UHGV virus genome: UHGV-0179107
Source: a virus
DNA: 13,840 nucleotides
Reading direction: 5' to 3' (one strand)
Positions 2,480 through 13,840 of the stretch are shown here, piece by piece; within the stretch, counting starts at the first letter, position 1; every line of letters starts with the position of its first letter. The notes under the pieces were generated by a model. That model worked only from the letters and a program-made list of their open reading frames with translations. It was not told the DNA's origin and ran no database searches. Made by a program: the position numbers and the translations under genes.

Positions 2480-3397
2480 TTATTTATCAAGTAAAACCAT
2501 CTTGCCCTCTCTTAAGCGGCAATTTTGCCATGCTGGGAAGGGGTTCAATAAATCTCCGGGATTGGCTTCAGTGTCCACAATAATTTCTATCCCTTCGTTT
2601 TCTTTTAATAGATTTGCTAGACGAAAGGCTTGATCAGTAAGATGCCAATATTTAGCAGAATTCATTATTTTGCCATCAATGGTGCCTTTAATATTTTTCA
2701 TCACCTCATAGCCATAGATTTCATCACGCAATACGCTAAGTTTTACCCTTCCTTTACCTTTATATTTAGCTTTAGCTGCCAGATATGCCGCCTTTGCTTC
2801 AGAATTCGTCAGAACTGGATAACCGTAAAAATCTTTCTCACGTTTGCCAGCGTCTCTACGGCGTTCTCTGCGTTCTTTTTTAGGTTGGGAAGGGGATTGC
2901 ATTGCCTCGGGCTTTTCAGGCTGCTGTGCGGCTTGTTTTGGGGCTTCCTGAGGCTGTTCTACTTTAGCGGCAGTCTTTCCGAAAGTCTCTAAGATGCCTT
3001 CTGGAATATTTACGCCCTTCTCGATGCACATATCCAACAATTGATCAGGGGTTTTCAGCAATTCGTAATGATTAGATTTGCCTTTTTTAACAATTGAAAT
3101 AAGCCCAGCATTTTCAAGAGATTTAATAGCGCTGGCTATTTTCCCGCGATCCTTTCTGAGTTGAGTTGCCAGTTTTTGCTCTGAAATATAAATTCCCTCA
3201 CCGTTAAAATGAAAGCCCACCATTTTTCCATAAATTAACATTTCAAAGTCTGTTAAATAAAAGCGCTCTTTAACTGTTCCCGTCTTTTTATTAGAGATTG
3301 TTGTTGCTACCGGTTTATCAAAATCATACTGAATAAAGAAATCGAAAGAGGGGGTAAAAGGTGCCCCCAGTCTATTTCCTGCCATAATTTCCCCCAT
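2480..3397 (-). CDS. Putative iteron-binding replication initiator / replisome organiser (305 aa): N-terminal winged-helix domain, Q/P/E/K-rich linker, C-terminal domain
   Basis: ORF track. The N-terminal domain (KERFYLTDFEMLIYGKMVGFHF...ISEQKLATQL...AIKSLENAGLISIVKKGKSNHYEL) has the winged-helix layout of lambda-O / phage replisome-organiser type proteins, followed by a basic low-complexity linker (KKERRERRRDAGKREKD). ATG 3397 overlaps the TAA of the upstream paralog; an alternative start at 3385 gives matching MA-N N-termini in both paralogs. Confidence 0.65.
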   Translation of the reverse strand: MGEIMAGNRLGAPFTPSFDFFIQYDFDKPVATTISNKKTGTVKERFYLTDFEMLIYGKMVGFHFNGEGIYISEQKLATQLRKDRGKIASAIKSLENAGLISIVKKGKSNHYELLKTPDQLLDMCIEKGVNIPEGILETFGKTAAKVEQPQEAPKQAAQQPEKPEAMQSPSQPKKERRERRRDAGKREKDFYGYPVLTNSEAKAAYLAAKAKYKGKGRVKLSVLRDEIYGYEVMKNIKGTIDGKIMNSAKYWHLTDQAFRLANLLKENEGIEIIVDTEANPGDLLNPFPAWQNCRLREGKMVLLDK

Positions 3398-3783
3398 TAA
3401 TATATAAAATATTCTCTAATACCCTGCTCATCGCACATCTTGCCAAGCTGATCAGGGGTAATTAGCAATTCGTAGATATTCGATTTGCCCTGTTCTCGTT
3501 TAACGTTTATCAGACCTGCAGCTTCTAATGTTTTGATTGCCGACCTTACTGTTTTCTCTGTAACATCATAATCGTCTGCTAATGTCTGCGTCGAAAGCTC
3601 TGAGATAATTATTTCTTCACCCTCCTTAAAAGAATAACTTACCATTTCACCATAAATTGTTACCTCCAACAAATTTAAGTGAAATCTTTCTTTATTGGTT
3701 GCAGTTTTTGCAATCGGATTTTTAAAAGTGTATTTGATGAAACGTTTAAAAATGGGAGTAAAATTTTCATCGTTGTTTGCCAT
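3397..3783 (-). CDS. Truncated paralog of the adjacent initiator (about 128 aa): winged-helix DNA-binding domain only
   Basis: Clear paralogy with the N-terminus of the 305-aa protein (NFTPIFKRFIKYTF vs PFTPSFDFFIQYDF; GKSNIYELLITPDQLGKMCDEQG vs GKSNHYELLKTPDQLLDMCIEKG). The track start at 3798 is a TTG that overlaps the SD; ATG 3783-3781 with GGAGG 8 nt upstream is the likely start. Confidence 0.65.
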   Translation of the reverse strand: MANNDENFTPIFKRFIKYTFKNPIAKTATNKERFHLNLLEVTIYGEMVSYSFKEGEEIIISELSTQTLADDYDVTEKTVRSAIKTLEAAGLINVKREQGKSNIYELLITPDQLGKMCDEQGIREYFIY

Positions 3784-3807
3784 AATATGATCCTCCAAGA
3801 TTATTTA

Positions 3808-4340: not shown

Positions 4341-4489
4341 ATTGTCAACCAATTGTCAATGAGAATTATTATCATTTAGGTGTGCTATAGGTACAAGCAA
4401 GTCCACAGCAAAGGGGTAAGCATTATTAATGGCCCCTACCGTGTCAAAACCAAAATCACTTATAGCATTTATTCAATAAGATTGTCAAT
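4341..4489 (-). promoter_or_regulatory. Three further ATTGTCAA(C/T) sites (4341-4349, 4352-4360, 4481-4489), each a TTGACA hexamer on the minus strand
   Basis: Seen directly. With the site at 4161-4169 this makes four same-orientation copies in about 330 bp. Possible -10 elements are weak (TAAGAT, TATAAG), so these may be operators or secondary promoters. Confidence 0.35.
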
Positions 4490-4801
4490 GGCCCACAACA
4501 TGCCTTCCTGCAGAAGGTTTGATTTTAATCAAATCCACGAAGTGGACCACAGGAGGGAGAGCACTTTTTGCCTTAGGCGCTCTAAAATCAATTCTAACGC
4601 GATTTAGAGGTCAGGTAATGCAATTGCACTACTCACCACAGTTAATGCAGCCAGAAGGCCATTTAGGGGCCCTATTTTTGATTTATGAGTGTCATATTAC
4701 GTGCATGCACGCGCGGGAGACTCTTTGCTGCCTCCTTCCGGCGCTGGCAAGCTTTCGGCAGCGGTCCACATTGTGGGCCTCATGCTGACGCATTCGCCGG
4801 A

Positions 4802-4963
4802 CCCACACAGACCCGAAGGGCTTAGCCATGGGCTAAGGTGCCGTAGGCACTCCCACACACAATTGGGTGACGTGTCATGTATGGAATACATTGTCACCCC
4901 ACACACAGGCCGACGTAGTCGGTTTAGCTGTATAGCTAAAGTCACAAAGTGACCCACACACAG
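4802..4963 (+). repeat. Array of about 50-bp units, each beginning with CCCACACACAG and containing different short perfect palindromes
   Basis: Punctuation motif at 4802, 4852, 4898 and 4954. Palindromes: CTTAGCC-ATG-GGCTAAG (4821-4837), GTGCC-GTA-GGCAC (4838-4850), GGGTGAC...GTCACCC (4865-4899), CCGAC-GTA-GTCGG (4910-4922), TTAGCT-GTAT-AGCTAA (4924-4939), GTCAC-AAA-GTGAC (4941-4953). Confidence 0.6.
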
Positions 4964-4966
4964 ATT

Positions 4967-5003
4967 GCCTAAAGAGTCGCTCATGCTCTTTAGGCTTTCA
5001 TTT
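4967..5003 (+). terminator. Candidate intrinsic terminator closing the hairpin array
   Basis: Perfect 10-bp stem GCCTAAAGAG / CTCTTTAGGC (4967-4976 and 4986-4995) with a 9-nt loop, followed by TTTCATTT. The minus-strand side has no U-tract. Confidence 0.4.
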
Positions 5004-5124
5004 GTGGGTTAAGCTTTTCCCTTAGAAAACCTTCCCCACTCTCTGATCCCTCCCCATCCCCCCTTGTTGGGGGATTATAGGGGGAGTTCTTTTTATTGAT
5101 CTATTCTCTTTATCTATTAGTGTG

Positions 5125-5270
5125 GGAAATCCCAGCATATATATGTAGGAAATTCCCGCATATATATGTTGGAAATACCAGCATATCCCTTTCTGTGTAT
5201 GGTTGAATATGCGGGAAATTCCAGCATATCGATCCCTATGCATGTGGGAACATGTGGGAAATACCGACAG
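5125..5270. repeat. Iteron array, candidate replication origin: GGAAAT-N-CC-(A/C)-GCATAT repeats
   Basis: Four 16-bp copies at 5125-5140, 5148-5163, 5171-5186 and 5214-5229. The first three are spaced exactly 23 bp (about two helical turns), the fourth is 43 bp further. Degenerate copies follow (tandem CATGTGGGAA x2 at 5241-5260; GGAAATACCGACAG at 5257-5270; GGAAATATGCAGATC at 5403-5417). Confidence 0.55.
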
Positions 5271-6332
5271 GTCTGTGTGGCTTAATTTGACTTGATATTG
5301 ACTAACAAAGGCCTTCGTAGAAGGTTTGAGATGAGCTCAAATCACCATATGTGACTAACAAACCTCTCTCCTCTCTCTTTGCTTTGATTTTCTCTCATGT
5401 GTGGGAAATATGCAGATCAACACCCTTTGATTTTATCGACAGGTATGTTGACACGCCCTACGGTTGTGAGGCCCGGGCATCATAAGTATGGCCCCTGGGG
5501 CAGTCCATCCTTCCCTCACACAGGACAATGAATACACTCCTTGCAGTCATGAATACATAAAGAACATGAAAGACTGTTCACACCAACACGCCGATAAATT
5601 GCCTGAAGAGGCTTACATGGTGGGATTGTTGTGTGGGTAATAGTGATCATGCTAACAGATTATGTTAATCAGATGTAAATTCCGATTTTGTGGTCTGCAG
5701 ATAGCAAACTATACTGGTTAGATGATCAGGGGAATGACTACAAAACAATCAAAAATGTGGGATATAGACATCTATACTTCTAATGTGCTGTGTGGGGTGT
5801 TAGTGCGTCCTAACCTCTAAGTCATTGATTTTAAGTGTTGGGAGAGATGCATTTAACATAATAGATCTTATCTACACTAATAAAGCGCACTACAAAATCT
5901 GATTTAAAAATCATGATAAGGAGGCCCAGAATTTACGTACAGTCACCTGAATAAATAATGTGCACAACATACAGCAAAGCTTAAGAATTAACATAATAGC
6001 AACGTGGTCAGTAGTGGTGTGATATTTGAGAATTGTTAGAAGAAAAAAGGGAGGTGGGGGAGCGCCTGCCTGGCACCTCAGACGAACATCTGACGGGTAT
6101 TAATACCGCTAATGGATATTTCTGACACCCACACCCAAGACCGCTTTCAGCACATAGCCATACACCGCACAGGATGCAATTGTGATAACAAAAAATGGGG
6201 GTGTAATAGGGTAGGCTGTCTTTCATCAAAATCACTTCTACGACGTTACCAGAGTGATAACAAGAAAACAGGCCTCTAAGATTATCTGTGCCTCGTTTTT
6301 AGCTTTTTGTGTGGTTACCAGGTGAAGAGGAA

Positions 6333-6497
6333 ATGTTAAAAACTGTTCATTTTATGCACAAACTAGTCAGGGTGATACCACAAAATGAGGCGCAAGAAAT
6401 CCAGCTGCAGATAATCTTGCAGCCAGATTTTGCAGTTTTTGAGGGTATGTTAAATTTGACAAAAATAGAGAAAAGGCTTATTAAGATAACTTATTGA
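6333..6497 (+). CDS. Possible small ORF (54 aa from ATG 6333), weak
   Basis: ORF track 6309..6497 starts at a GTG; the internal ATG 6333 has GGTGA about 7 nt upstream. It is the only moderately plausible ORF in the 2.7-kb gap, with no recognisable family. Could be non-coding. Confidence 0.2.
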   Translation: MLKTVHFMHKLVRVIPQNEAQEIQLQIILQPDFAVFEGMLNLTKIEKRLIKITY

Positions 6498-6571
6498 TTT
6501 TATTAGTATTATGAAAAAGGGTTACACCCTCTCTCTTACTCTGTCAACCGGGCGGTTGTGGCATAAAACGG

Positions 6572-6697
6572 ATTAAATCAATAAATAGGCATTAAATACC
6601 CATTAAATACCCCTTAAATAGGGGTTAATTGCTCAGGACTGAAAGGAGTGTAAATAGGGGATAAATAGGGGTTAATTGAGGGATAAATAAAAAGGGG
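6572..6697. repeat. AT-rich direct-repeat cluster: TAAATAGGGGTTAATTG x2 plus shorter TAAATAGG and ATTAAAT copies
   Basis: 17-mer at 6615-6631 and 6662-6678 (47 bp apart); TAAATAGGGG at 6651-6660; TAAATAGG at 6582-6589; ATTAAAT at 6572, 6591 and 6603. Lies just beyond the terminator of the membrane-protein operon. Confidence 0.55.
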
Positions 6698-6710
6698 CCG
6701 TGATGGCCCC
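6681..6710 (-). terminator. Rho-independent terminator of the leftward HTH / membrane-protein operon
   Basis: Minus strand: GGGGCC-AUCAC-GGCCCC (plus 6694-6710) followed by UUUUUAUUUAU, starting 8 nt after the TGA at 6721-6719. Confidence 0.7.
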
Positions 6711-6718
6711 CTGGTAGG

Positions 6719-7237
6719 TCAGAACAGTTTTTTGCTTTTTCTCCAACTAACGCCGCGTTTGCCTATGCTCAGCCAGCCGCCAGCGAATCGGGTACCTGCG
6801 GTAACACTAGCTCCCCTGGTGCCTACATGTGCATAAATACCTGCCCCACTGCTACCACCGCTTCTACGGCTTTTTCCGCCATCGATATCGAGGAGAGCAC
6901 AGATTGCACCCCACAAAAAGCCAACCAACCAATATACATATGCTAAGCCTAAAACACCCCAGGTTACCGCCCACCCCTCTAGACTAGTGGGGAAGTAGAA
7001 AGCATTGAGAACAGCATTTATAGGACGGATCAGGAGAGAATCTATAAAACCAATATCCACATGAAACGGGCCATCACCGAACTTGCTACTGCCAATAAAC
7101 AAGGTAGCAGGGTAAAAACAGATAGCCATTAACCAAGGCCCGGCTATCAAAAACGCTGCAGTGTACTGAAAGAACATTTTTACCAGTTCTTTAAAAAGCC
7201 TTTTATTTACTGATTCTTTGTCTTTCTGGAATAACAT
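6719..7237 (-). CDS. Membrane protein (172 aa) with two predicted transmembrane helices and a Gly/Ser/Arg-rich C-terminal tail
   Basis: ORF track. Hydrophobic segments FFQYTAAFLIAGPWLMAICFYPATLFI and WAVTWGVLGLAYVYWLVGFLWGAICALL; tail GKSRRSGGSSGAGIYAHVGTRGAS...SWRKSKK. A purine-rich SD-like stretch precedes ATG 7237. No family recognised. Confidence 0.65.
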   Translation of the reverse strand: MLFQKDKESVNKRLFKELVKMFFQYTAAFLIAGPWLMAICFYPATLFIGSSKFGDGPFHVDIGFIDSLLIRPINAVLNAFYFPTSLEGWAVTWGVLGLAYVYWLVGFLWGAICALLDIDGGKSRRSGGSSGAGIYAHVGTRGASVTAGTRFAGGWLSIGKRGVSWRKSKKLF

Positions 7238-7294
7238 AGCGGTACCCCTTTGCGAGAAGTTGAATTTAGTTAATAACCTGTTGGACCGTTTACA

Positions 7295-7555
7295 TTACTT
7301 AGCTTTCTTGAATCTCCCGTCCTCCTTTCTTTCGATATTGTGGTAGTCGGCATAGGCTTTCAGCCTTCTGTGCACGGTGGCTATCCCCACACCGAAGGTT
7401 TTAGCAATAACCTGTCGTGGTGTTCCCTCCTCGACCATCTTAAACATCTGTGCCGCTACATCCATTTGTGCGGCTATCTCCATTTGCTTTGCCTTTGCTT
7501 TAACTTCAGCTATCAGCTCTTCCCTCAGTCTCCTGATATCTTTAGCCCCCGTCAT
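7295..7555 (-). CDS. Small DNA-binding protein (86 aa): N-terminal coiled coil, C-terminal resolvase/Hin-type HTH
   Basis: ORF track. The segment TPRQVIAKTFGVGIATVHRRLKAY fits the resolvase-type HTH pattern (IA...GV...TV.R.L). GAGGAG precedes ATG 7555-7553. Confidence 0.6.
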   Translation of the reverse strand: MTGAKDIRRLREELIAEVKAKAKQMEIAAQMDVAAQMFKMVEEGTPRQVIAKTFGVGIATVHRRLKAYADYHNIERKEDGRFKKAK

Positions 7556-7597
7556 AAACTCCTCTCAATGCTGTTCATAAACTCATCTCAATGATGA
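7552..7597. repeat. Tandem 23-bp duplication spanning the RBS and start codon of the HTH gene
   Basis: Plus strand TCATAAACTCCTCTCAATGCTGT (7552-7574) and TCATAAACTCATCTCAATGATGA (7575-7597). On the minus strand the upstream copy creates an 8-codon uORF (MNSIERSL) whose TGA overlaps the HTH start codon. Confidence 0.6.
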
Positions 7598-7656
7598 TTA
7601 ATACAAAATCTAAGACTACCAGACCTATTAAAAATGCTTTGCCTCCTTTGCCCATC

Positions 7657-7779
7657 TCATACCTCCACACACAGAGCTAACATCAGGGCTAACACTCCAA
7701 CCACCTCAATTGCCTTAACCATGTGTGGGTGATGAAACCTAGCCTTTTGCCATGCGCTGGCACTGTTCTTGATACCCAT
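7657..7779 (-). CDS. Possible small hydrophobic peptide (40 aa), below the ORF-track cutoff
   Basis: Hand translation: MGIKNSASAWQKARFHHPHMVKAIEVVGVLALMLALCVEV. Its 5-prime leader shares a 15-mer (plus-strand TTTGCGAGAAGTTGA at 7791-7805 and 7249-7263), within a roughly 26-nt homologous region, with the leader of the membrane-protein gene. Confidence 0.3.
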   Translation of the reverse strand: MGIKNSASAWQKARFHHPHMVKAIEVVGVLALMLALCVEV

Positions 7780-8016
7780 ATCTATAACCTTTTGCGAGAA
7801 GTTGATTTGTTTGCTCGGTTGGGTGCTATCAATGCTCCCCTTCCTTGATTCGAACTATAGCCGGGTAAATCCCCGGAAAACATTGATATTGATCAAAAGA
7901 TATCTATCACGAATGAAAAAGTTATGATAGATGCTATGAGATGACGTATTGATGGGATTGATAGAGGTCTGAAAATACCGTTACCACGCTAATTATTAGA
8001 ATTTATATAATCAGGG

Positions 8017-8047
8017 TGTTGACAATTTGAGAGAATACTGATATAAT
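8017..8047 (+). promoter_or_regulatory. Consensus sigma70 promoter upstream of the capsid genes
   Basis: TTGACA (8019-8024), 17-nt spacer, TATAAT (8042-8047), with an AT-rich UP-like tract upstream (7985-8015). The 14-mer TGTTGACAATTTGA (8017-8030) is identical to the reverse complement of 4157-4170. Confidence 0.6.
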
Positions 8048-8190
8048 ATACATATACACCGTAAATCTTTGGTGAAAGTGATTTGCCGTATTTTCCTCCA
8101 AAGTAAAGGCGACCAGGTAGCGGTGCCGCCTTATAAATAACACTACCCTGATCATCGTTGAGTGGTCGATTAATTCTCCTATTGGGCTAG

Positions 8191-8199
8191 TTATCCACA
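8191..8199 (+). promoter_or_regulatory. Perfect DnaA-box consensus TTATCCACA in the capsid leader
   Basis: Exact 9-mer seen directly. It overlaps the left arm of an 8-bp inverted repeat CCACACAG / CTGTGTGG (8195-8202 and 8221-8228). Only one copy, so a chance match is possible. Confidence 0.3.
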
Positions 8200-8366
8200 C
8201 AGTTTTCTTTTGCGGGTTTTCTGTGTGGGTAGCTATCCCGAAAGGTATTTCCCCGCTGATGTGACCGCAGCCTGAACTGATTCGGGGGAGTGCCTTTCGT
8301 GATAGTGCTCTCAAGCAACCGTAACCATGTGCTATCAGCCAACTTTGTTGGTTTTCCTCATGTGGA

Positions 8367-8396
8367 ATAGCCCCCGCTTGGACGGTGCGGGGCTAT
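8367..8396 (+). terminator. Terminator-like or attenuator hairpin in the capsid leader
   Basis: ATAGCCCC(C)GC / GCGGGGCTAT stem with one bulged C and a 9-nt loop, followed by a pyrimidine-rich but imperfect U-tract (CTCCCTCTTCTTAT). Lies between the promoter and the first capsid-module gene. Confidence 0.3.
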
Positions 8397-8525
8397 CTCC
8401 CTCTTCTTATATCAATCTCCCTTTTAATAGATTTCCGGCATAACTTTTCGGCCCGAGCCTGTCGTAGTTCTAGAGGTTATGCCGGAACTCTTTGAGGGGA
8501 GTTAATTTAAATCGCAGGTGATCAA

Positions 8526-8861: not shown

Positions 8862-8872
8862 GGAGGTTGAAG

Positions 8873-9919
8873 ATGGCTAAAAAAGAATTCGAAGTTCGCG
8901 ATCTGTGTGGTCTGATTAAAGACATCCCGCTGGATAACCAGATTATTTCAGCAATGGATATCTTTAACACTACTGCTCTGTGCAATACCTTTAAATTTGA
9001 ATATGACAAAGTCCGCCAGGTGAAACAAACCGCTTTCGGTCAGTATCCGCGCTACGGTGAACAGATGGCGACCATTACCGCAGATGAGCGTGAAACGGGC
9101 ACGGGTGATATGGCATTCACTGCCGCATCCAGTGCTATTTATCCTTCTGACTGGCAGGGTATTCGTGTTCCGGGCAAAGATTCCGAAGAGAATTTAGAGT
9201 CTGTTACCGCTCGGCGTGTTATTCAGTTGGGTGAAGGCTTACGCCAGACCCATGAAGAAGCACGCCAGCTTGCTCTCTTTGAGAACAAAATTATCCTCAC
9301 CAAGGGTAAAGAACTGAATGTGTGCGAACTGCTGGGCGCACAGCAAACCACCTCGGAAGTGGATTTAGCTAAAGATATCCTTAAACAGCTGCAGGACCTG
9401 GTTGCACTGAGCAAGATTAAACAGCGTGGTGTCGTTCGCGCTCTTCGTGGTTTCACCCTGTTCTGCCGTGCTGAGCTCTTTGCTGCAATTCAGACTGATG
9501 AACTGTTGAGAAAAGTGCTGTTGTTCGGCAATCAGAATATTACCGACAAAGGTCTGATGTTCCCTGAGGATATTCTGCCGGGCTTCCCGACCTTCCGCAT
9601 TCCGGGCTTAGCCCTGCGTGTGGTGCAAATGGATAGTCTGCCAGAGAATACTGCTTATCTGGTCCCACAATTCCAGCCACATGCGTTAGGCGATATGGTG
9701 GGCGTTTATACTCAATTTTTCGGCCCTTGCGCTCGCAACTTGAAGCTTGCAAACGGCGCTGCACGTGAAGCTTTCATGTATATGGAAGAGTCCAGAGGTA
9801 AACGAGAAATCTTCATTGAATCCTCTTATGCTTTCATGAACATGATGCCTGAGGTTGTGGTTAAAGTGAGTGTTAGTAACTCCGCCGCCGCTGCTCTGGC
9901 AAAAGCCAAGGCTAAATAA
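8873..9919 (+). CDS. Major capsid protein, lambda gpE-like family (348 aa from ATG 8873)
   Basis: Track start 8867 is a TTG; ATG 8873 has a perfect AGGAGG 6 nt upstream. Size and the C-terminal LPENTAYLVP segment parallel lambda gpE (341 aa; LPDNTMVLG), recalled from memory. Confidence 0.8.
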   Translation: MAKKEFEVRDLCGLIKDIPLDNQIISAMDIFNTTALCNTFKFEYDKVRQVKQTAFGQYPRYGEQMATITADERETGTGDMAFTAASSAIYPSDWQGIRVPGKDSEENLESVTARRVIQLGEGLRQTHEEARQLALFENKIILTKGKELNVCELLGAQQTTSEVDLAKDILKQLQDLVALSKIKQRGVVRALRGFTLFCRAELFAAIQTDELLRKVLLFGNQNITDKGLMFPEDILPGFPTFRIPGLALRVVQMDSLPENTAYLVPQFQPHALGDMVGVYTQFFGPCARNLKLANGAAREAFMYMEESRGKREIFIESSYAFMNMMPEVVVKVSVSNSAAAALAKAKAK

Positions 9920-10285: not shown

Positions 10286-10359
10286 CGATAGATAGCCCTG
10301 TCTTTTTATCAGAATTCACACAGGGCCACCAAAAGATTCAATTTGGAGGCATGTTTAAT

Positions 10360-11163
10360 ATGGCTAGTGATGCTCTGACAGCTGCAAAACAAGCTGAGTC
10401 GAGATCTCCTGCATTCACTGTTATGTGTGGGGGATATTCACAAAACAAAAATATAATGGATGGCTTCAACTATACCGATAATGTGGCTATCTTCTTTGAC
10501 TCTATCTCTGATGTCAGCTATTCGTTCCCTGTTGAGAAATCGAGCTATGCGGTCGAGGATGGCACCACCATGTCAGACCATGCCGTCATTAAAGATAAAT
10601 CTGTCAGCTTTACGGGTATTATTACCTCTTCCCCTCATATCATCCGGAAAGAGAACTACATTGACCGGAACACTGATCCAGATAATCCCCGTGAGTCTAT
10701 GCGCCCTGCTGCCGCTGTTCAGGCACTTATGGAAATGAGAGACAAGCGCCAGCTAGTCAGCCTGGTGAGTGAAGATGCCGGACTCCTTGAGAACTTCATC
10801 ATGACGAAATGTGAAGTTAAGCGTAGCTCTTCCTCTGGCGACTGCATCACTATTGATTGCACCTTTGAAGAATTCCGCACCTTCAAGGTGAAGATGGTCG
10901 AAAATGCCGGAGTCTTCACTAACAGCAAGAAGGTGAACAAAACACAGCAAAAGGGTGCTGTTAACAGTGCTAAAGAGGGTAGTAACGCTGGCAATGCTGC
11001 TACGAAATCCACCAGGGCTAAGCATCGCGGGGAATATGCACAGGGAGAGGCAGCGGGAAAGATTGCCGCAGGTGATAAGTCTGTTGTGTCGAACGAGTTC
11101 CACGAAACGATGATCGATAAGGCCAACATGTTGCTTGATGACATAACGGAGATCAATAAATGA
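10360..11163 (+). CDS. Phage morphogenesis-module protein of unknown role (267 aa), with a Lys/Ala/Gly-rich low-complexity C-terminus
   Basis: ORF track 10351..11163. GGAGG (10345-10349) is 1 nt from ATG 10351 but 10 nt from ATG 10360, so 10360 is preferred. The stop overlaps the next start (ATGA at 11160-11163). Confidence 0.55.
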   Translation: MASDALTAAKQAESRSPAFTVMCGGYSQNKNIMDGFNYTDNVAIFFDSISDVSYSFPVEKSSYAVEDGTTMSDHAVIKDKSVSFTGIITSSPHIIRKENYIDRNTDPDNPRESMRPAAAVQALMEMRDKRQLVSLVSEDAGLLENFIMTKCEVKRSSSSGDCITIDCTFEEFRTFKVKMVENAGVFTNSKKVNKTQQKGAVNSAKEGSNAGNAATKSTRAKHRGEYAQGEAAGKIAAGDKSVVSNEFHETMIDKANMLLDDITEINK

Positions 11164-11618
11164 GTCCTAAAGTCCGGTGCACCATAGACAAGCGCATGAT
11201 GGATAAGCTGCATAAAGAGCTCTCACAGATGGAAGGTGTAGCGGTTGGCTGGGATGACGGAAAGCACTATAGCGGCCTGAATTATGCCACACTGGCAGCA
11301 ATTCATTCTGAGGGGTGGGGTGATTTGCCTAAGCGCTCCTTTATGGAATCTGCACACGCTGCAATGCTCTATGAGAGCCTGAGACACACAAAAGCCCTGA
11401 TTAATGCAATCGTAAAGGGTGGAAGCTCTGAGGCCGTCAGGAAGCGAATTGGCAAGCGATACGCCGACATTTTGGAGACTATCCTGATTAGTGGGCAATT
11501 CAGCAATAACAAGGTATCCCCACAATGGGCAAGCTATAAAGGCTTCAATGATGCCATGCGCCACTATGATGATTTGATCGGTGCAATCAAATACTGGTCA
11601 AATGTGGGGAGAGGTTGA
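11160..11618 (+). CDS. Putative tail-completion / virion-morphogenesis protein (152 aa), HK97 gp10 / P2 gpS-like
   Basis: ORF track; translationally coupled to the upstream gene. The segment NYATLAAIHSEGWGDLPKRSF resembles the YA-x-IH-x-FG motif recalled for these head-tail joining families. Assignment is from memory, not a search. Confidence 0.55.
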   Translation: MSPKVRCTIDKRMMDKLHKELSQMEGVAVGWDDGKHYSGLNYATLAAIHSEGWGDLPKRSFMESAHAAMLYESLRHTKALINAIVKGGSSEAVRKRIGKRYADILETILISGQFSNNKVSPQWASYKGFNDAMRHYDDLIGAIKYWSNVGRG

Positions 11619-11959
11619 AAAAGACAATAGTGTTCTTTTGAGGCCGTAGTGATACACCACAAATCAGCCCCTTTCCACTTCTTTTTCTCGCGATTGGTCC
11701 CTTGTGAGAATCCTTTATCAGGTATGCATTGTCCCGTGCATGAGCGGTCGATAGAGCCAGCCTCTTTCCCGGACTGGTTAGGATTTAGTGCGCTGATTGA
11801 GCGCCGCTATCACTGTTAGCCTGTTTATCGTTGCCTGGTTTGTGCATCACTGCACCCCCTGGGCACCGGACCCGCCTCAAAGGTCGGATCATCACAATTG
11901 GCGGGGCGGTTTTATAGTCGCTTTAAGGTTTATAGGCCGGAGTTGACTTACCTTCCGGC

Positions 11960-12007
11960 AACCTGCTAACATTAGTCTCGCGAGAGGTTGATTTTTGTTA
12001 GCAGGTT
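11960..12007. repeat. Perfect 12-bp inverted repeat with a nested palindrome in the convergent intergenic region
   Basis: AACCTGCTAACA (11960-11971) and TGTTAGCAGGTT (11996-12007), separated by 24 nt that contain the 10-bp palindrome TCTCGCGAGA (11976-11985). Confidence 0.6.
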
Positions 12008-12036
12008 CGCCCCGCATCAAAAGGATACCGGAGAAG

Positions 12037-12067
12037 AGCCCCTTTGTTAACACTTAGGGGCTTTTTT
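12037..12067 (+). terminator. Intrinsic terminator, plus-strand orientation
   Basis: AGCCCCT (12037-12043) pairs with AGGGGCT (12056-12062) around a 12-nt loop, followed by TTTTT (12063-12067). The minus-strand side has an A-run before the stem and no U-tract after it. Confidence 0.5.
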
Positions 12068-12145
12068 CTTGCCTGGAGTTTATCCGGTTAAGCTAACTTA
12101 TTGATTTTGATCACAATATCAGTAAAGCTGCACTATCTTCCAGCA

Positions 12146-13840
12146 TTAGAAAAGCTGATTAGATTCCTGTGTGGCTTTCCAATCCAACTGATCGCTGACT
12201 TCCTTCTGGATCACCCTGGCAATTCCCCCCTCATCAATGGTTATCTCCCATTTGCCGGAGATCTCACCATGAGGCACCACATTAACCTGAGCAGGTTGAT
12301 AGCCGCCATTCTGAATAGCCGTACCCGTGCTAGGAGTAGGACGTGACGGGCTAATTGTTGGATATGGATTAAAGGAAGCTCCTTTGCTGATGTAGCTATG
12401 GTTATAGGCCCCTGGCTTGGTCATAGCATCCTGCTCATCACTGAGAAGGCCTTTAGATTTAGCCCACTCCCCGAACTGATCAGCCTTGCTTTGCATCCAT
12501 CCTCTGAACTTCTCACCTACCGTCTTAGCGCCAAGTGCGCCAGCGACACCAACACCCACACCTGCGGCACTGCCAGCGGCTAATGCTGTTGTTGGGCTTC
12601 CAGCGACTGCCCCGCCAGCACCCTTAACGAGATTGCCCAGACCTGGAATCTTGCCTATCAGAGAAATCAGTTGGGTGACAAGTGAAACAAATCCGGTTAG
12701 AGGGGAAAGCAGTGTAGTAATAACTTTCAGACCAGCTAAGCCAACCACCAGTTTTCCGATAAGCTCGCCAACCTCTGATCCGGTCATGCCGAACTCTTTA
12801 GCCTTAACCTCGATATAGCCCTTAGCGAAGCCTACCCAATACATGATCTCACGCATGGCAGCCCCGACTGCCTCACCAAACTGTTTTGCCGCGCTCCCGC
12901 TGCCGTCCATATCAGTGGTGAGGTCTTCGAAGATGGAGATTAGAGATTCAGATAAGCTAATAACGCCATCTGCAGGATCTACAACACCCATAAACTGAAT
13001 CGCCAGCTCGTTAAAGCTGTTTTTCATGCGCTGCATTGCTACTTCTGGCTGTTTCATGGATTCAGCAAAAGCTTTAGTTTCTTTTGCAGCACCCCAGATT
13101 TTCACCAGAGAAGGAAGAAGCTTGTCCAGGGTGATTTTGCCATCTTTAAGGGCTTTATCGAATTCCTGGGCATTCTTGATGATTCCGGCATCAATAGCGG
13201 CCTGTTGGAAGTCTTGTTGTGAGCCTGCAAAGGCTTCTGCCAGCTGCCCCCGCAGCTCCTCCGCCATGACTTTATTTTTTGAAGCCATTTGTTGGACCGC
13301 AACAAGCGCCCTGTTTTGTTGCTCACCAGTAGCACCCACTGAGCGGCCTTTAATAGCCATAGCCTCAAAAAGAGCCTGCTTATCAGATTCCTTCATGGTG
13401 GGGGTAGCGGCAGCAAAACGCATATAGCCGCCTTCCATCTCACGCTGATCCATCCCGTAGGTGTAGGCTGTGTTCTTGATGAAAGCCATCTGTTGGTCAG
13501 TCTTGGCTTTATCATCCTTGTTCTGGGCCATTAAACCGAAGTAGGCACTGTTGCGATCTGCAAGGCTGCTCATAGCACCACTAACAGCACGCTGAACACC
13601 CCAGCCAGCGGCAGTAAGGCCGATAGCTATCTTGCCTAAAGTGGAATTCAGTTTCCCCAGGTTGTCATGCAGCTTGGCCCCTGTGATCGCAACTTTATCC
13701 AGTCTGCTCTGGAATTTTCCGGCTTCTGCTGTTGCCATCTTCATTTCAGCTCTGAGTCGGGCCATTTTCTGATTATAGGTCTGCAGGTTGATAGCCCCTT
13801 TAGCATAATCAGCATTAACTCTCTGAATTCTGGATTGGAA
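12146..13840 (-). CDS. Tail tape measure protein, C-terminal about 564 codons; start codon lies beyond the window end
   Basis: Hand translation shows the frame is open from 13840 to the stop at 12148-12146; the track's M at 13765 is internal. Contains a TMP-core-like segment (TGEQQNRALVAVQQMASKNKVMAEELRGQLAEAF), coiled-coil N-terminal part, and a Gly/Ala-rich hydrophobic segment typical of tape measure proteins. Confidence 0.8.
   Translation of the reverse strand, partial: FQSRIQRVNADYAKGAINLQTYNQKMARLRAEMKMATAEAGKFQSRLDKVAITGAKLHDNLGKLNSTLGKIAIGLTAAGWGVQRAVSGAMSSLADRNSAYFGLMAQNKDDKAKTDQQMAFIKNTAYTYGMDQREMEGGYMRFAAATPTMKESDKQALFEAMAIKGRSVGATGEQQNRALVAVQQMASKNKVMAEELRGQLAEAFAGSQQDFQQAAIDAGIIKNAQEFDKALKDGKITLDKLLPSLVKIWGAAKETKAFAESMKQPEVAMQRMKNSFNELAIQFMGVVDPADGVISLSESLISIFEDLTTDMDGSGSAAKQFGEAVGAAMREIMYWVGFAKGYIEVKAKEFGMTGSEVGELIGKLVVGLAGLKVITTLLSPLTGFVSLVTQLISLIGKIPGLGNLVKGAGGAVAGSPTTALAAGSAAGVGVGVAGALGAKTVGEKFRGWMQSKADQFGEWAKSKGLLSDEQDAMTKPGAYNHSYISKGASFNPYPTISPSRPTPSTGTAIQNGGYQPAQVNVVPHGEISGKWEITIDEGGIARVIQKEVSDQLDWKATQESNQLF

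Follow-up and report, generated by a model that had tools for sequence, protein, structure and literature searches.

A leftward operon ending in a swappable slot for predicted envelope proteins in probable satellite plasmids of Escherichia coli

In the morons and hotspots of temperate phages and their satellites (lambdoid phages; the defence loci of P2 and P4), one position holds alternative, unrelated genes. The superinfection-exclusion proteins, among them T4 Imm and Sp, P22 SieA, HK97 gp15, P1 Sim and T5 Llp, are small mobile-element proteins of the inner membrane or periplasm, some of them anchored, and they are variable and have no enzymatic domains. Satellites of the cfPICI and P4-like types have their own replication genes and an incomplete set of virion genes. 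According to a 2025 review, the sole plasmid shown to be a satellite is that of an inovirus (PMC12282955). We found nothing in the literature on satellites of rV5-like phages or on the plasmids described here, and no experimental report of helper-phage packaging or transfer of these plasmids.

The DNA that we analysed (the window, 13,840 nt) is a complete circular E. coli plasmid of 13.8 kb. Over its whole length it is 93-95% identical to circular E. coli plasmids of 13.2-13.7 kb and, judged by this similarity, is a member of an uncharacterised 13-14 kb plasmid family. The family's capsid protein, tape measure, tail-tube initiator and Neck1-like protein are related to those of rV5-like myoviruses; identity to the Vequintavirus MaxTheCat was 51% for the tail-tube-initiator homolog, 45% for the Neck1-like protein and 25% for the tape measure. 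Because its capsid and tail genes have these relatives, the plasmid is probably a phage satellite, of rV5-like phages. As in other satellites, a partial set of virion genes, whose homologs occur in a candidate helper, is combined with replication functions of its own, here Rep-like winged-HTH proteins and iterons. Portal, protease and terminase genes were neither annotated nor detected on the plasmid, and ORF, repeat and Pfam scans revealed no integrase gene. Searches of the window for tRNA and tmRNA found none, and no known RNA family reached its gathering score; the sole RNA-family match below E = 1 was to an unrelated ctRNA model (12032-12072).

We compared the locus in an alignment of seven plasmids and in a survey of 32 family members. 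According to the initial annotation, a leftward unit that ends in a terminator of its own separates the replication genes from the capsid genes. This was borne out: the unit was syntenic in 32/32 elements examined, and all of the features listed for it were present in the window at the coordinates given and conserved in relatives. In order, it comprises a 40-aa membrane peptide, a 26-aa ORF, an 8-codon bridge ORF, an 86-aa winged-HTH protein, a 57-nt spacer, a gene that we call the cargo, and the strong terminator. The 40-aa ORF (7657-7779, minus strand) encodes a peptide with a basic, His-rich N-terminus and a hydrophobic C-terminal helix, for which no family match was found in Pfam, PHROGs, PADLOC or NCBIfam. 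All 40 codons are intact in 32/32 relatives and dN/dS is 0.05-0.17, indicating purifying selection, so that what had been listed as a possible hydrophobic peptide is a real gene. One nucleotide separates it from a 26-aa hydrophobic ORF, MGKGGKAFLIGLVVLDFVLIIIEMSL (ATG at 7655 to stop at 7575, minus strand), which the initial annotation did not contain. This ORF has its GGAGG Shine-Dalgarno sequence just inside the 3' end of its 40-aa neighbour, and its stop codon, TGA, is shared in part with the start codon of the 8-codon ORF, so that the unit consists of ORFs coupled one to the next. A divergent lineage keeps the 26-aa ORF as 28 aa with some synonymous changes, and the ORF is frameshifted or truncated in 8 of the 32 relatives; the importance of its product is doubtful.

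Where the small ORF joins the HTH gene we found a 23-bp tandem duplication (7552-7573 and 7575-7596, minus strand; copies 91% identical). It creates the 8-codon ORF (7578-7552, minus strand; ATG AAC AGC ATT GAG AGG AGT TTA TGA), which has an ATGA overlap at both ends, its TGA overlapping the HTH ATG. The duplication is missing from L002, L006 and the divergent lineage L009/L010/L133/L134, and where it is absent the stop of the small ORF directly overlaps the HTH start region. Its length is not divisible by three, and only the copying of the stop-start junction as a whole makes it tolerable. The HTH start does lie inside the duplication with its short upstream ORF, as had been noted, but this arrangement, being polymorphic among relatives, is by that distribution a tolerated polymorphism and not a designed feature. 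Where the 26-aa ORF meets the 8-codon ORF, and this in turn the HTH gene, the overlaps and short upstream ORFs resemble those of ATGA-coupled operons. The difference is that the 8-codon ORF comes from a recent duplication that several relatives do not have, and it is therefore not an ancestral regulatory uORF.

The gene that follows the HTH gene belonged, among the 32 members, to one of three families: A, a membrane protein of 172-179 aa; B, an anchored periplasmic protein of 225-236 aa; or C, a secreted protein of 195 aa. The window carries type A (6719-7237, minus strand) and most relatives carry a secreted periplasmic protein. The window's exact 86-aa HTH protein precedes genes of 172, 176, 195 and 236 aa in relatives. 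Carriers of A, B and C agree at 97-98% of positions over the 600 nt that precede the cargo ATG; homology ends exactly at the ATG and resumes, between carriers of different cargo, at the terminator. Divergence is also discordant within the unit: for the pair L005 and L125, dS is 0.2 for the HTH gene but 1.05 for the cargo. Cargo dN/dS is 0.2-0.5 and the cargo evolves faster than the core. GC content is 0.46-0.49 across 6600-7200 compared with 0.37-0.44 to either side, a modest difference.

Both walls of this slot are common to all cargo types. On the 5' side is the cargo initiation region, leader 2 (7238-7266, minus strand), consisting of a 12-mer (7252-7263), the Shine-Dalgarno sequence AAAGGGG and the ATG. 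On the 3' side is an intrinsic terminator (6692-6712, minus strand; GGGGGCC-ATCAC-GGCCCCC and then a U-run), with an 8-bp stem, 6 GC pairs and, following it, UUUUUAUUU. Its RNA fold has a free energy of -15.2 kcal/mol (z = -2.8), and in 31 of 32 relatives, whatever the cargo, the same hairpin follows the stop codon at a distance of 10-28 nt. Comparison of the carriers shows that the cargo position is built as an expression socket between this leader and this terminator, and that whole ORFs have been exchanged in it between near-identical backbones. Since the same exact HTH protein stands before three unrelated cargo families, the HTH gene and the 40-aa peptide are, by this distribution, part of the core backbone, and the last gene alone is accessory. 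Unrelated genes have been swapped into a fixed socket, and the 172-aa protein is therefore an interchangeable cargo and not the partner of the DNA-binding protein. The grouping of peptide, HTH protein and membrane protein as a dedicated module, proposed earlier, is not supported, given an identical HTH before three unrelated cargo families. Its description as moron-like held in part: the cargo is replaced in relatives that are 97-98% identical and has its own terminator, but no sigma-70 promoter of its own was found, with nothing closer to a sigma-70 site than 8/12 (15-nt spacer) in the 180 nt that precede the cargo ATG. The cargo occupies the last place in a core operon and is not a free-standing moron. 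Homologous recombination in the conserved flanks best explains the exchange.

We then considered the products of the slot. Cargo A is predicted to lie in the inner membrane and to extend a conserved basic tail into the cytoplasm. Hydropathy places its hydrophobic segments at about residues 22-49 and 89-116, with peaks at 28-48 and 90-119, and the basic stretch covers 117-172. The basic, Gly/Arg-rich C-terminal tail, of about 45 residues, is nearly invariant even where overall identity is 45%, with a dN/dS of 0.06 compared with 0.3-0.5 for the N-terminal part. A low-confidence AF2 model (pLDDT 54) has helices followed by a 4-strand C-terminus. A likeness of the tail to DUF4236, seen by eye, was not borne out by Pfam (E up to 1 for the three family members P0003-P0005 and up to 0.1 for the window protein). 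The alternative cargos B and C have signal-peptide or TM N-termini and share a periplasmic segment (E = 2e-5), and all three families are predicted envelope proteins.

No homolog of known function was found for the cargo families in Pfam, PHROGs, PADLOC, NCBIfam, INPHARED or 1.84 billion representative proteins. When the 172-aa protein was run by tblastn against 50,697 phage records there was no match, and searches that included IMG/VR and GTDB genomes gave only about nine related clusters, all unannotated; a match to the 1414-aa P0010 proved to be a spurious repeat match. Distant cargo A homologs sit among small genes in phage-like contigs. The initial annotation had assigned neither the 86-aa nor the 172-aa protein to a known family, and in Pfam, PHROGs, PADLOC and NCBIfam neither matched a holin, structural or defence family; PADLOC gave nothing for the cargo and only weak HTH-level matches for the 86-aa protein. 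Our best inference, drawn by analogy, is that the cargo proteins may be accessory envelope factors of superinfection-exclusion or defence type. They are like the exclusion proteins named above in size, location and genomic behaviour only, and differ in that neither sequence nor profile comparison links them with any of these or with a PHROG.

The 86-aa protein (7295-7555, minus strand) scored above the Pfam cut-offs for HTH_7 (29.0 bits, gathering 23.8) and HTH_23 (27.4 bits, gathering 24.6). Its residues 35-67 align with the Hin DNA-binding domain (1HCR, E = 0.0014), and a confident AF2 model (pLDDT 84.8) shows one long N-terminal helix (residues 1-42), the HTH and a short C-terminal beta wing. 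These three results confirm that the protein had been correctly called as an HTH protein. The folds nearest to the model are winged-HTH DNA-binding regulators, none of them significant; no terminase subunits were among them, and a small-terminase identity was rejected. The gene is constrained whichever cargo follows (dN/dS 0.06-0.1), and its homologs are restricted to this plasmid family; roughly 230 public contigs carry the gene. The likeness to the Hin and Gin serine invertases (HTH_7; 1HCR) is confined to the HTH segment: the 86-aa protein has no catalytic domain (no Pfam match to the resolvase catalytic domain), stands alone and carries the long N-terminal helix and beta wing. On these profile and model results, it is most likely a regulator.

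Candidate sites for such a regulator are found in a conserved control region (7826-7964), where CTATCA/TGATAG (and ATCAAT) sites lie at 7826, 7904, 7925 and 7959. A motif scan located two further CTATCA/TGATAG sites at 8300 and 8332. Six of the 15 such sites in the window thus fall within 5% of the sequence (p about 8e-5), and the divergent lineage keeps three of the control-region sites. The hix half-sites of Hin are TTATCAAAAACC; we take the enriched CTATCA/ATCAA sites to resemble them, ATCAA being presumably the core of Hin-type half-sites. Two promoters are associated with the region. A weak candidate leftward promoter (minus strand; -35 GTGATA at 7910-7905, -10 TATCAA at 7888-7883, 16-nt spacer) matches the consensus at 8-9/12 positions, and its -35 is TTGATA in L003, L004 and L010. 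A rightward promoter facing the capsid operon (8019-8047, plus strand; TTGACA-17-TATAAT with an upstream TG) matches at 12/12 and is conserved. We propose that the HTH protein would bind the CTATCA/ATCAA-type sites in this divergent control region and regulate its own weak leftward promoter; the consensus promoter of the capsid operon is likely to be a target as well, and would probably also be regulated by it.

The 172-aa and 40-aa genes had been reported to share a homologous leader, and our comparison sustains and extends this claim. An exact 15-mer, TCAACTTCTCGCAAA (minus strand), is present at 7249-7263 and 7791-7805 within a 43-nt repeat that is 74% identical, and both copies end 11 nt before an ATG. 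The second of these positions belongs to leader 1 (7780-7808, minus strand), the translation-initiation region of the 40-aa gene. The invariant core of the leaders is a 12-mer, TCAACTTCTCGC, located at 7794-7805 in leader 1. It is unchanged at both leaders in 32/32 elements, ahead of all three cargo types, and is kept in a lineage whose flanks and Shine-Dalgarno sequence differ, indicating functional constraint. With up to 2 mismatches allowed, the window has 6 matches compared with 1.06 expected, and none of 200 shuffles reached 6. Every complete plasmid has exactly three copies on the same strand, the third allowing one mismatch. This third copy, TCAACCTCTCGC (11980-11991, minus strand), follows the tape-measure gene and occupies the loop of a 12-bp hairpin (-23.8 kcal/mol, z = -2.6), and the site is retained in L009/L010 despite different flanks. 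No conserved ORF follows it, and translation alone therefore does not fully account for the 12-mer. We suggest that the 12-mer would be a cis element, more likely acting on RNA, that puts the first gene and the cargo gene under common control.

Several specific roles for the 12-mer were tried and rejected. A hairpin sequestering the Shine-Dalgarno sequence was not supported, as the leader folds no better than shuffles (z from -0.9 to +0.8); no significant leader RNA structure was found, and small CUUCU/AGGGG stems are possible. A search of the plasmid for an antisense or sRNA partner, tolerating G-U pairs and followed by RNAduplex, returned nothing but the opposite strand of the motif itself; L009 does not conserve a partial complement located at about 11680-11697. 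Pairing with 16S rRNA in the manner of an epsilon-like enhancer gave a best duplex of -12.0 kcal/mol, whereas shuffled 12-mers paired more strongly on average (-13.7). A role as helper-phage promoter was also discarded. The complete genome of MaxTheCat contains 10 matches with up to 2 mismatches compared with 5-19 in shuffles, which is no enrichment, and in IMG/VR contigs the 15-mer occurs only as single matches at the estimated chance rate; the 12-mer is therefore not a known helper promoter motif. CTAAATAcCcc is a putative late-promoter motif of a related phage. TAAATA-CCCC/GGGG motifs are virtually absent from MaxTheCat (10-mers zero, one 9-mer twice). In the rV5 genome the late-gene motif is TggTAaAAtA (PMC3606486), a sequence not matched by the 12-mer or by the TAAATA-GGGG repeats.

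The order of the locus, a small HTH gene, then a gene for a membrane protein and a terminator, is what one would expect of a dedicated toxin-antitoxin, abortive-infection or regulator-effector pair in which the HTH protein neutralises or controls a toxic protein, and the upstream hydrophobic peptides are like type I toxins in size and composition. We nevertheless regard such a pair as very improbable. That the identical HTH is found beside three unrelated families, one of them secreted and soluble, argues against toxin-antitoxin or two-component pairing and for a moron-like slot; in addition, the HTH is strongly constrained whatever the cargo, it resembles site-specific DNA-binding domains and winged-HTH regulators, and PADLOC, Pfam and NCBIfam returned no toxin or antitoxin match. 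It is likewise improbable, though a little less strikingly so, that cargo A is a holin-like or lysis-timing protein that adjusts lysis during helper infection. Two or more hydrophobic helices and then a highly basic C-terminal tail do make up the general holin layout, a generic feature, and a second Met lies just ahead of the first helix. In the phage-like contig L008 a cargo A homolog is located about 1.3 kb upstream of an Rz-like spanin gene, but the intervening genes there are regulator- and Ant-like and include no endolysin. The plasmid has no endolysin or spanin gene, Pfam and PHROGs gave no holin-family match, and no homology of the membrane protein to a known holin or structural protein was found. 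A lysis-timing role is also a poor fit to a slot that a secreted periplasmic protein fills in most relatives, and to our knowledge the invariant beta-rich tail of cargo A is unlike the tails of known holins.

The repeats themselves admit two further explanations. If the 12-mer acted on DNA, as an operator, a roadblock or a promoter element for a plasmid or helper factor, the cargo would be an independent unit and a true moron. We consider this unlikely, yet it accounts for several observations: the third copy is not beside a conserved start codon, ATCAA, around which the enriched control-region motif is built, is present in copies 1 and 3, and no sigma-70 promoter was found for the cargo. In L004, moreover, extra hairpins are inserted between the HTH gene and leader 2, just upstream of the latter; these could block read-through, which would imply a separate cargo promoter. 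On the other side, all copies are on the transcribed strand, two of them at a fixed 13-15 nt from a start codon, the motif has no dyad symmetry, and the Vequintavirus and IMG/VR searches gave no enrichment. That the repeats have no function at all, the leader likeness being a relic of duplication and the 23-bp repeat a replication slip, seems to us scarcely credible. The 23-bp duplication is indeed polymorphic and dispensable, but a functionless leader is contradicted by a 12-mer that stays invariant in 32 elements while adjacent bases, Shine-Dalgarno sequences and downstream genes differ, and that is enriched over shuffles.

We therefore favour, as reasonably probable, the reading in which the leftward unit is the regulatory and accessory operon of a probable rV5-like satellite plasmid with a swappable envelope cargo. 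The cargo would be co-transcribed with the operon and translated from its conserved leader, and the cargo proteins would diversify by allele swapping. A broader proposal, which we put forward tentatively and think rather unlikely as it stands, is that these plasmids are undescribed extrachromosomal satellites of lytic rV5-like myoviruses with the leftward operon as their control centre. The 12-mer, read by an element-specific or infection-induced factor, would co-switch the peptide and regulator, the cargo and the untranslated region behind the tape-measure gene, and would define a socket that exchanges envelope-acting anti-phage or exclusion proteins. If the favoured reading holds, the locus offers a compact natural expression socket in which single ORFs are swapped between leader and terminator in near-identical plasmids, and the three orphan envelope-protein families become candidates for new superinfection-exclusion or defence functions that can be tested on E. 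coli phage collections. The regulator and peptides would provide an entry point to how a plasmid satellite senses its rV5-like helper. Comparative data would also have corrected the intuition that a small HTH gene and the adjoining membrane-protein gene form a functional pair.

Compared with morons and hotspots, the cargo slot described here is likewise closed by a terminator, non-core, filled at one position by alternative unrelated genes and exchanged by recombination between relatives. It differs in that no promoter of its own was detected, the swapped segment is exactly one ORF from leader to terminator, the cargos are orphan envelope proteins and not known defence systems, and the host element is a plasmid carrying lytic-type phage structural genes. 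The exchange of single ORFs at a fixed position 3' of common expression signals recalls integron cassettes, although an integrase, attC-like imperfect inverted repeats and an array are all absent from the plasmid. Like the cfPICI and P4-like satellites, the plasmid is small, with its own replication genes, some virion genes and an incomplete virion set. It differs from them in being extrachromosomal and without an integrase, in having a capsid protein, tape measure, tail-tube initiator and Neck1-like protein without portal, protease or terminase, and in having lytic rV5-like myoviruses as its phage relatives.

The three ORFs that the initial annotation had proposed for the leftward operon, encoding a 40-aa peptide, an 86-aa DNA-binding (HTH) protein (7295-7555, minus strand) and a 172-aa membrane protein, were all found in place. 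So were the terminator (6712-6692), which has a U-run behind a fold of -15.2 kcal/mol (z = -2.8), the two exact 15-mer copies (7249-7263 and 7791-7805) within a 43-nt repeat, the 23-bp tandem duplication at 7552-7596 and an 8-codon ORF whose TGA overlaps the HTH start. The HTH assignment is supported by scores above the Pfam gathering thresholds for HTH_7 and HTH_23. We also found an overlooked 26-aa hydrophobic ORF (7655-7575), whose GGAGG Shine-Dalgarno is inside the final codons of the 40-aa ORF and whose stop overlaps the ATG of the 8-codon ORF. On the minus strand the unit reads: leader 1 (the initiation region of the 40-aa ORF), 40-aa ORF, 1 nt, 26-aa ORF, ATGA overlap, 8-codon ORF, ATGA overlap, HTH gene, a 57-nt spacer with leader 2 (the initiation region of the last gene), 172-aa ORF and terminator.

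The operon was compared across 32 family members, complete plasmids and contigs found through the HTH protein and the product of the last gene (the cargo). In this non-random sample three cargo families were present. Family A (172-179 aa), to which the window's membrane protein belongs, occupied the position in 10 elements; B (225-236 aa), with an N-terminal membrane anchor and a periplasmic part, in 5; and C (195 aa), which bears a signal peptide, in 17. The window's exact HTH protein has neighbours from all three families: A proteins of 172 and 176 aa, a 236-aa B and a 195-aa C. In elements with the same HTH protein and different cargo, the 600 nt 5' of the cargo ATG were 97-98% identical; similarity ended at that ATG and returned 10-28 nt past the cargo stop, at the common terminator hairpin. 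The dS values were discordant, being 0.2 for the HTH gene and 1.05 for the cargo in one pair (L005 vs L125). One HTH protein with three cargos, sharp breakpoints and discordant dS together indicate that the last gene is a recombining cassette in a fixed slot. The idea of a moron-like module therefore holds for the accessory gene, which has its own terminator and is swapped in relatives, but not for the HTH and 40-aa genes, which belong to the core and are not inserted. The HTH and membrane proteins are not the dedicated pair proposed earlier, since the same HTH adjoins three cargo families, and a toxin-antitoxin pairing of the two is contradicted by the identical HTH protein standing beside A, B and C.

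The 40-aa ORF kept its 40 codons in 32/32 elements with conservative changes only (dN/dS 0.05-0.17) and, judged from sequence, is a real gene. The HTH gene is under equal constraint (dN/dS 0.06-0.1), and its homologs were seen in this plasmid family only (10-20 kb contigs in 194 of 228 index blocks). In the most divergent lineage the 26-aa ORF persists at 28 aa and shows some synonymous changes; in 8/32 elements it is truncated or frameshifted. Its translation may be more important than its product. An extra 35-aa, strongly acidic ORF (MSQAEMVIKAEELLERLQKAMDDAWNLIEELHEED) is found in the divergent lineage (L010:2111-2218, L133:2311-2418) between the 40-aa and 26/28-aa ORFs, tightly coupled to both. 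The tandem duplication, which nothing we saw marks as a regulatory innovation, appears incidental: it is missing from several relatives (L002, L006 and the L009/L010/L133/L134 lineage), where the stop of the small ORF directly overlaps the HTH start region. Its 23 bp are not a multiple of three and copy the entire stop-start junction, so that an 8-codon bridge ORF is added and coupling is preserved. It resembles a tolerated slip.

The products of all three cargo families are predicted to reside in the envelope. Cargo A is basic at its N-terminus and in its C-terminal tail, and has hydrophobic segments at ~22-49 and ~89-116; both termini are predicted to be cytoplasmic. Its last ~45 residues (SGxGVYAHVGTRGxSxTAGTRFAGGWLSxGKRGxSWRKSKKLF) are nearly invariant even at 45% overall identity, with a dN/dS of 0.06 against 0.3-0.5 for the remainder. 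Some distant members carry the same tail on different membrane anchors, one being an 87-aa single-pass protein. The AF2 model is poor (pLDDT 54), with helices followed by a four-strand C-terminus. The family is tiny: five clusters among 5.8 billion proteins, six representatives (one spurious) among 1.84 billion, and none in IMG/VR or GTDB representative genomes. Phage-like contigs hold two distant homologs, each with small genes around it; contig L007 carries Dit-like, tape-measure, Kil and HNH genes, and L008 methyltransferase-like, Ant-like and Rz-like spanin genes. Cargos B and C had no family matches in Pfam, PHROGs, PADLOC or NCBIfam; C was seen in this plasmid family only, and tblastn against phage records returned nothing for it. 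B and C have a short periplasmic segment in common (BLASTP E = 2e-5), and A and B a "GPW" motif in the first helix (by eye). Faster evolution than in the core, together with swapping from one backbone to another, is how accessory genes at the phage-host interface typically behave, and the cargo genes show both. Our best available, though tentative, guess at their function is superinfection exclusion or defence. A holin-like role is possible for cargo A but fits B and C poorly.

The window matched complete circular E. coli plasmids (13.2-13.7 kb) over its full length at 93-95% identity; NZ_CP020521.1, NZ_CP178698.1, NZ_CP035869.1, CP148565.1 and CP134895.1 match end to end, and PLSDB classes the matching plasmids as non-mobilizable. 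The tape-measure gene, on the minus strand, spans the junction of the two window ends (12146-13840 plus 1-432), so the window is one complete circular element. Further genes are those for the major capsid protein (phrog_29, 8867-9919), a "tail tube initiator" of Dit-like type (10351-11163), a protein like Neck1/tail-completion proteins (phrog_222, 11160-11618) and two paralogous Rep-like winged-HTH proteins (2480-3798, minus strand); no portal, protease, terminase, sheath or tube genes were found in the window. Three window proteins have homologs in rV5-like myoviruses (Vequintavirinae), with identities to phage MaxTheCat of 51% (tail-tube initiator), 45% (Neck1-like) and 25% (tape measure). 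The adjacent Rep-like ORFs (133 and 305 aa) share 50% identity over 131 aa; in relatives the annotation shows one Rep-like gene (~290-305 aa), so the window has an extra N-terminal-domain copy. Family members are 13-14.4 kb and reside in E. coli and Shigella; 7 of 5426 complete E. coli genomes carry the family, as do >200 index blocks of public assemblies. NZ_CP043822.1, an E. coli plasmid of 39,610 bp, matches the window in several places (4 counted), consistent with a head-to-tail multimer of the ~13.2-kb element, which may bear on packaging into a large helper capsid.

Behind the operon, 4400-6700 (~2.3 kb) holds no annotated or convincing ORF; in rV5 a region of 2.6 kb is likewise free of ORFs (PMC3606486). 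The probable replication origin is a set of five 23-nt iteron-like repeats (TGTGGGAAATYCCMGCATATATA) at 5121-5275. Positions 4710-4772 match MaxTheCat 131729-131791 (84%), and 6021-6044 gave a short match to that phage's 2.5-kb non-coding region. Directly behind the operon terminator are TAAATA(GGGG/CCCC) repeats with 11-bp phasing (6582-6689), which differ between plasmids in copy number and in an interspersed 'cactcctttcagtcctga' unit. They may form a centromere-like or protein-binding array. In the Vequintavirus genome examined the 10-mers were absent and one 9-mer occurred twice.

The 86-aa protein has no catalytic domain; its HTH segment can be aligned to the Hin recombinase DNA-binding domain (1HCR, E = 0.0014). 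Its confident model (pLDDT 84.8) places the helix-turn-helix between one long N-terminal helix and a short beta hairpin; the closest solved folds are winged-HTH transcription regulators, none significant. We infer that it is the element's regulator. The 700-nt inter-operon region contains a perfect sigma-70 consensus promoter with extended -10 TG (8019-8047), facing the capsid genes, and a weak leftward candidate (7910-7883, GTGATA-16-TATCAA; TTGATA in three relatives). CTATCA/TGATAG is the most enriched hexamer of this region, with 6 of its 15 window copies there (p ~8e-5); three sites are conserved in the divergent lineage and one overlaps the candidate -35. The sites resemble Hin-type half-sites (TTATCA...). 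The HTH protein might auto-regulate its own promoter and would probably repress the consensus capsid promoter until a helper infects. Between this promoter and the capsid operon is a ~470-nt untranslated leader (promoter and leader together, 8019-8525) with long inverted repeats (8178-8245, 8233-8305, 8429-8491), which suggests attenuation or other RNA-level control of the structural genes. Short hairpin-containing insertions (68, 48 and ~49 nt) were seen in the control regions of L003 and L004 (~7930 and ~7828 on the window in the alignment), and in L004 also between the HTH stop and leader 2; they leave conserved blocks undisturbed and may be miniature mobile or REP-like sequences.

The duplicated initiation regions noted initially are real and functionally constrained: their common 12-mer core, TCAACTTCTCGC, is unchanged at both leaders in 32/32 elements. 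It is held even in the L009/L010 lineage, though flanks and Shine-Dalgarno differ (AAAGGATG and AGGAG, against AAAAGG and AAAGGGG in the window), and ends 13-15 nt from the ATG. The 12-mer is enriched in the window relative to shuffles, and complete plasmids carry exactly three copies each (<=1 mismatch), on one strand throughout. The third lies 60-150 nt past the tape-measure stop, with no conserved ORF after it; in the window (11980-11991, minus strand) it sits in the loop of a stable 12-bp hairpin (11954-12010, -23.8 kcal/mol, z = -2.6). This hairpin is downstream of the tape-measure terminator, and its loop also holds the palindrome TCTCGCGAGA. The surrounding 500-nt non-coding region is conserved in the main plasmid group but not in L009, where only the 12-mer and a nearby GTCAACTC persist.

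As a helper-phage promoter motif the 12-mer can be set aside, being not enriched in the Vequintavirus genome, and the 15-mer giving single matches only in IMG/VR contigs; the 12-mer's pairing with 16S rRNA was weaker than that of shuffled controls. No complementary RNA partner was found on the plasmid, no significant local RNA structure at the leaders and no match to a known RNA family. This leaves a cis element that is specific to one strand and to this kind of plasmid; two copies are within ribosome reach of a start codon and one is away from any start. We favour an RNA-level operator or processing signal, a reading suggested by the strand bias and fixed spacing. Action as a DNA site is a less likely alternative. 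Copies 1 and 3 contain ATCAA, and the enriched motif of the control region has this sequence as its core too.

The gene set fits a phage satellite kept as a plasmid, and rV5-like lytic myoviruses are the candidate helpers that we infer for the family. We found no publication on this plasmid element; only one plasmid has been demonstrated to be a satellite, that of an inovirus (2025 review, PMC12282955). An accessory-gene hotspot in a phage-related mobile element, as this locus is, is a known kind of thing. What is unusual is that precisely one ORF is exchanged, with a conserved leader on one side and a terminator on the other, that the 12-mer signal gave negative results for the mechanisms tried, and that the carrier resembles a satellite of rV5-like phages, borne on a plasmid and so far undescribed.
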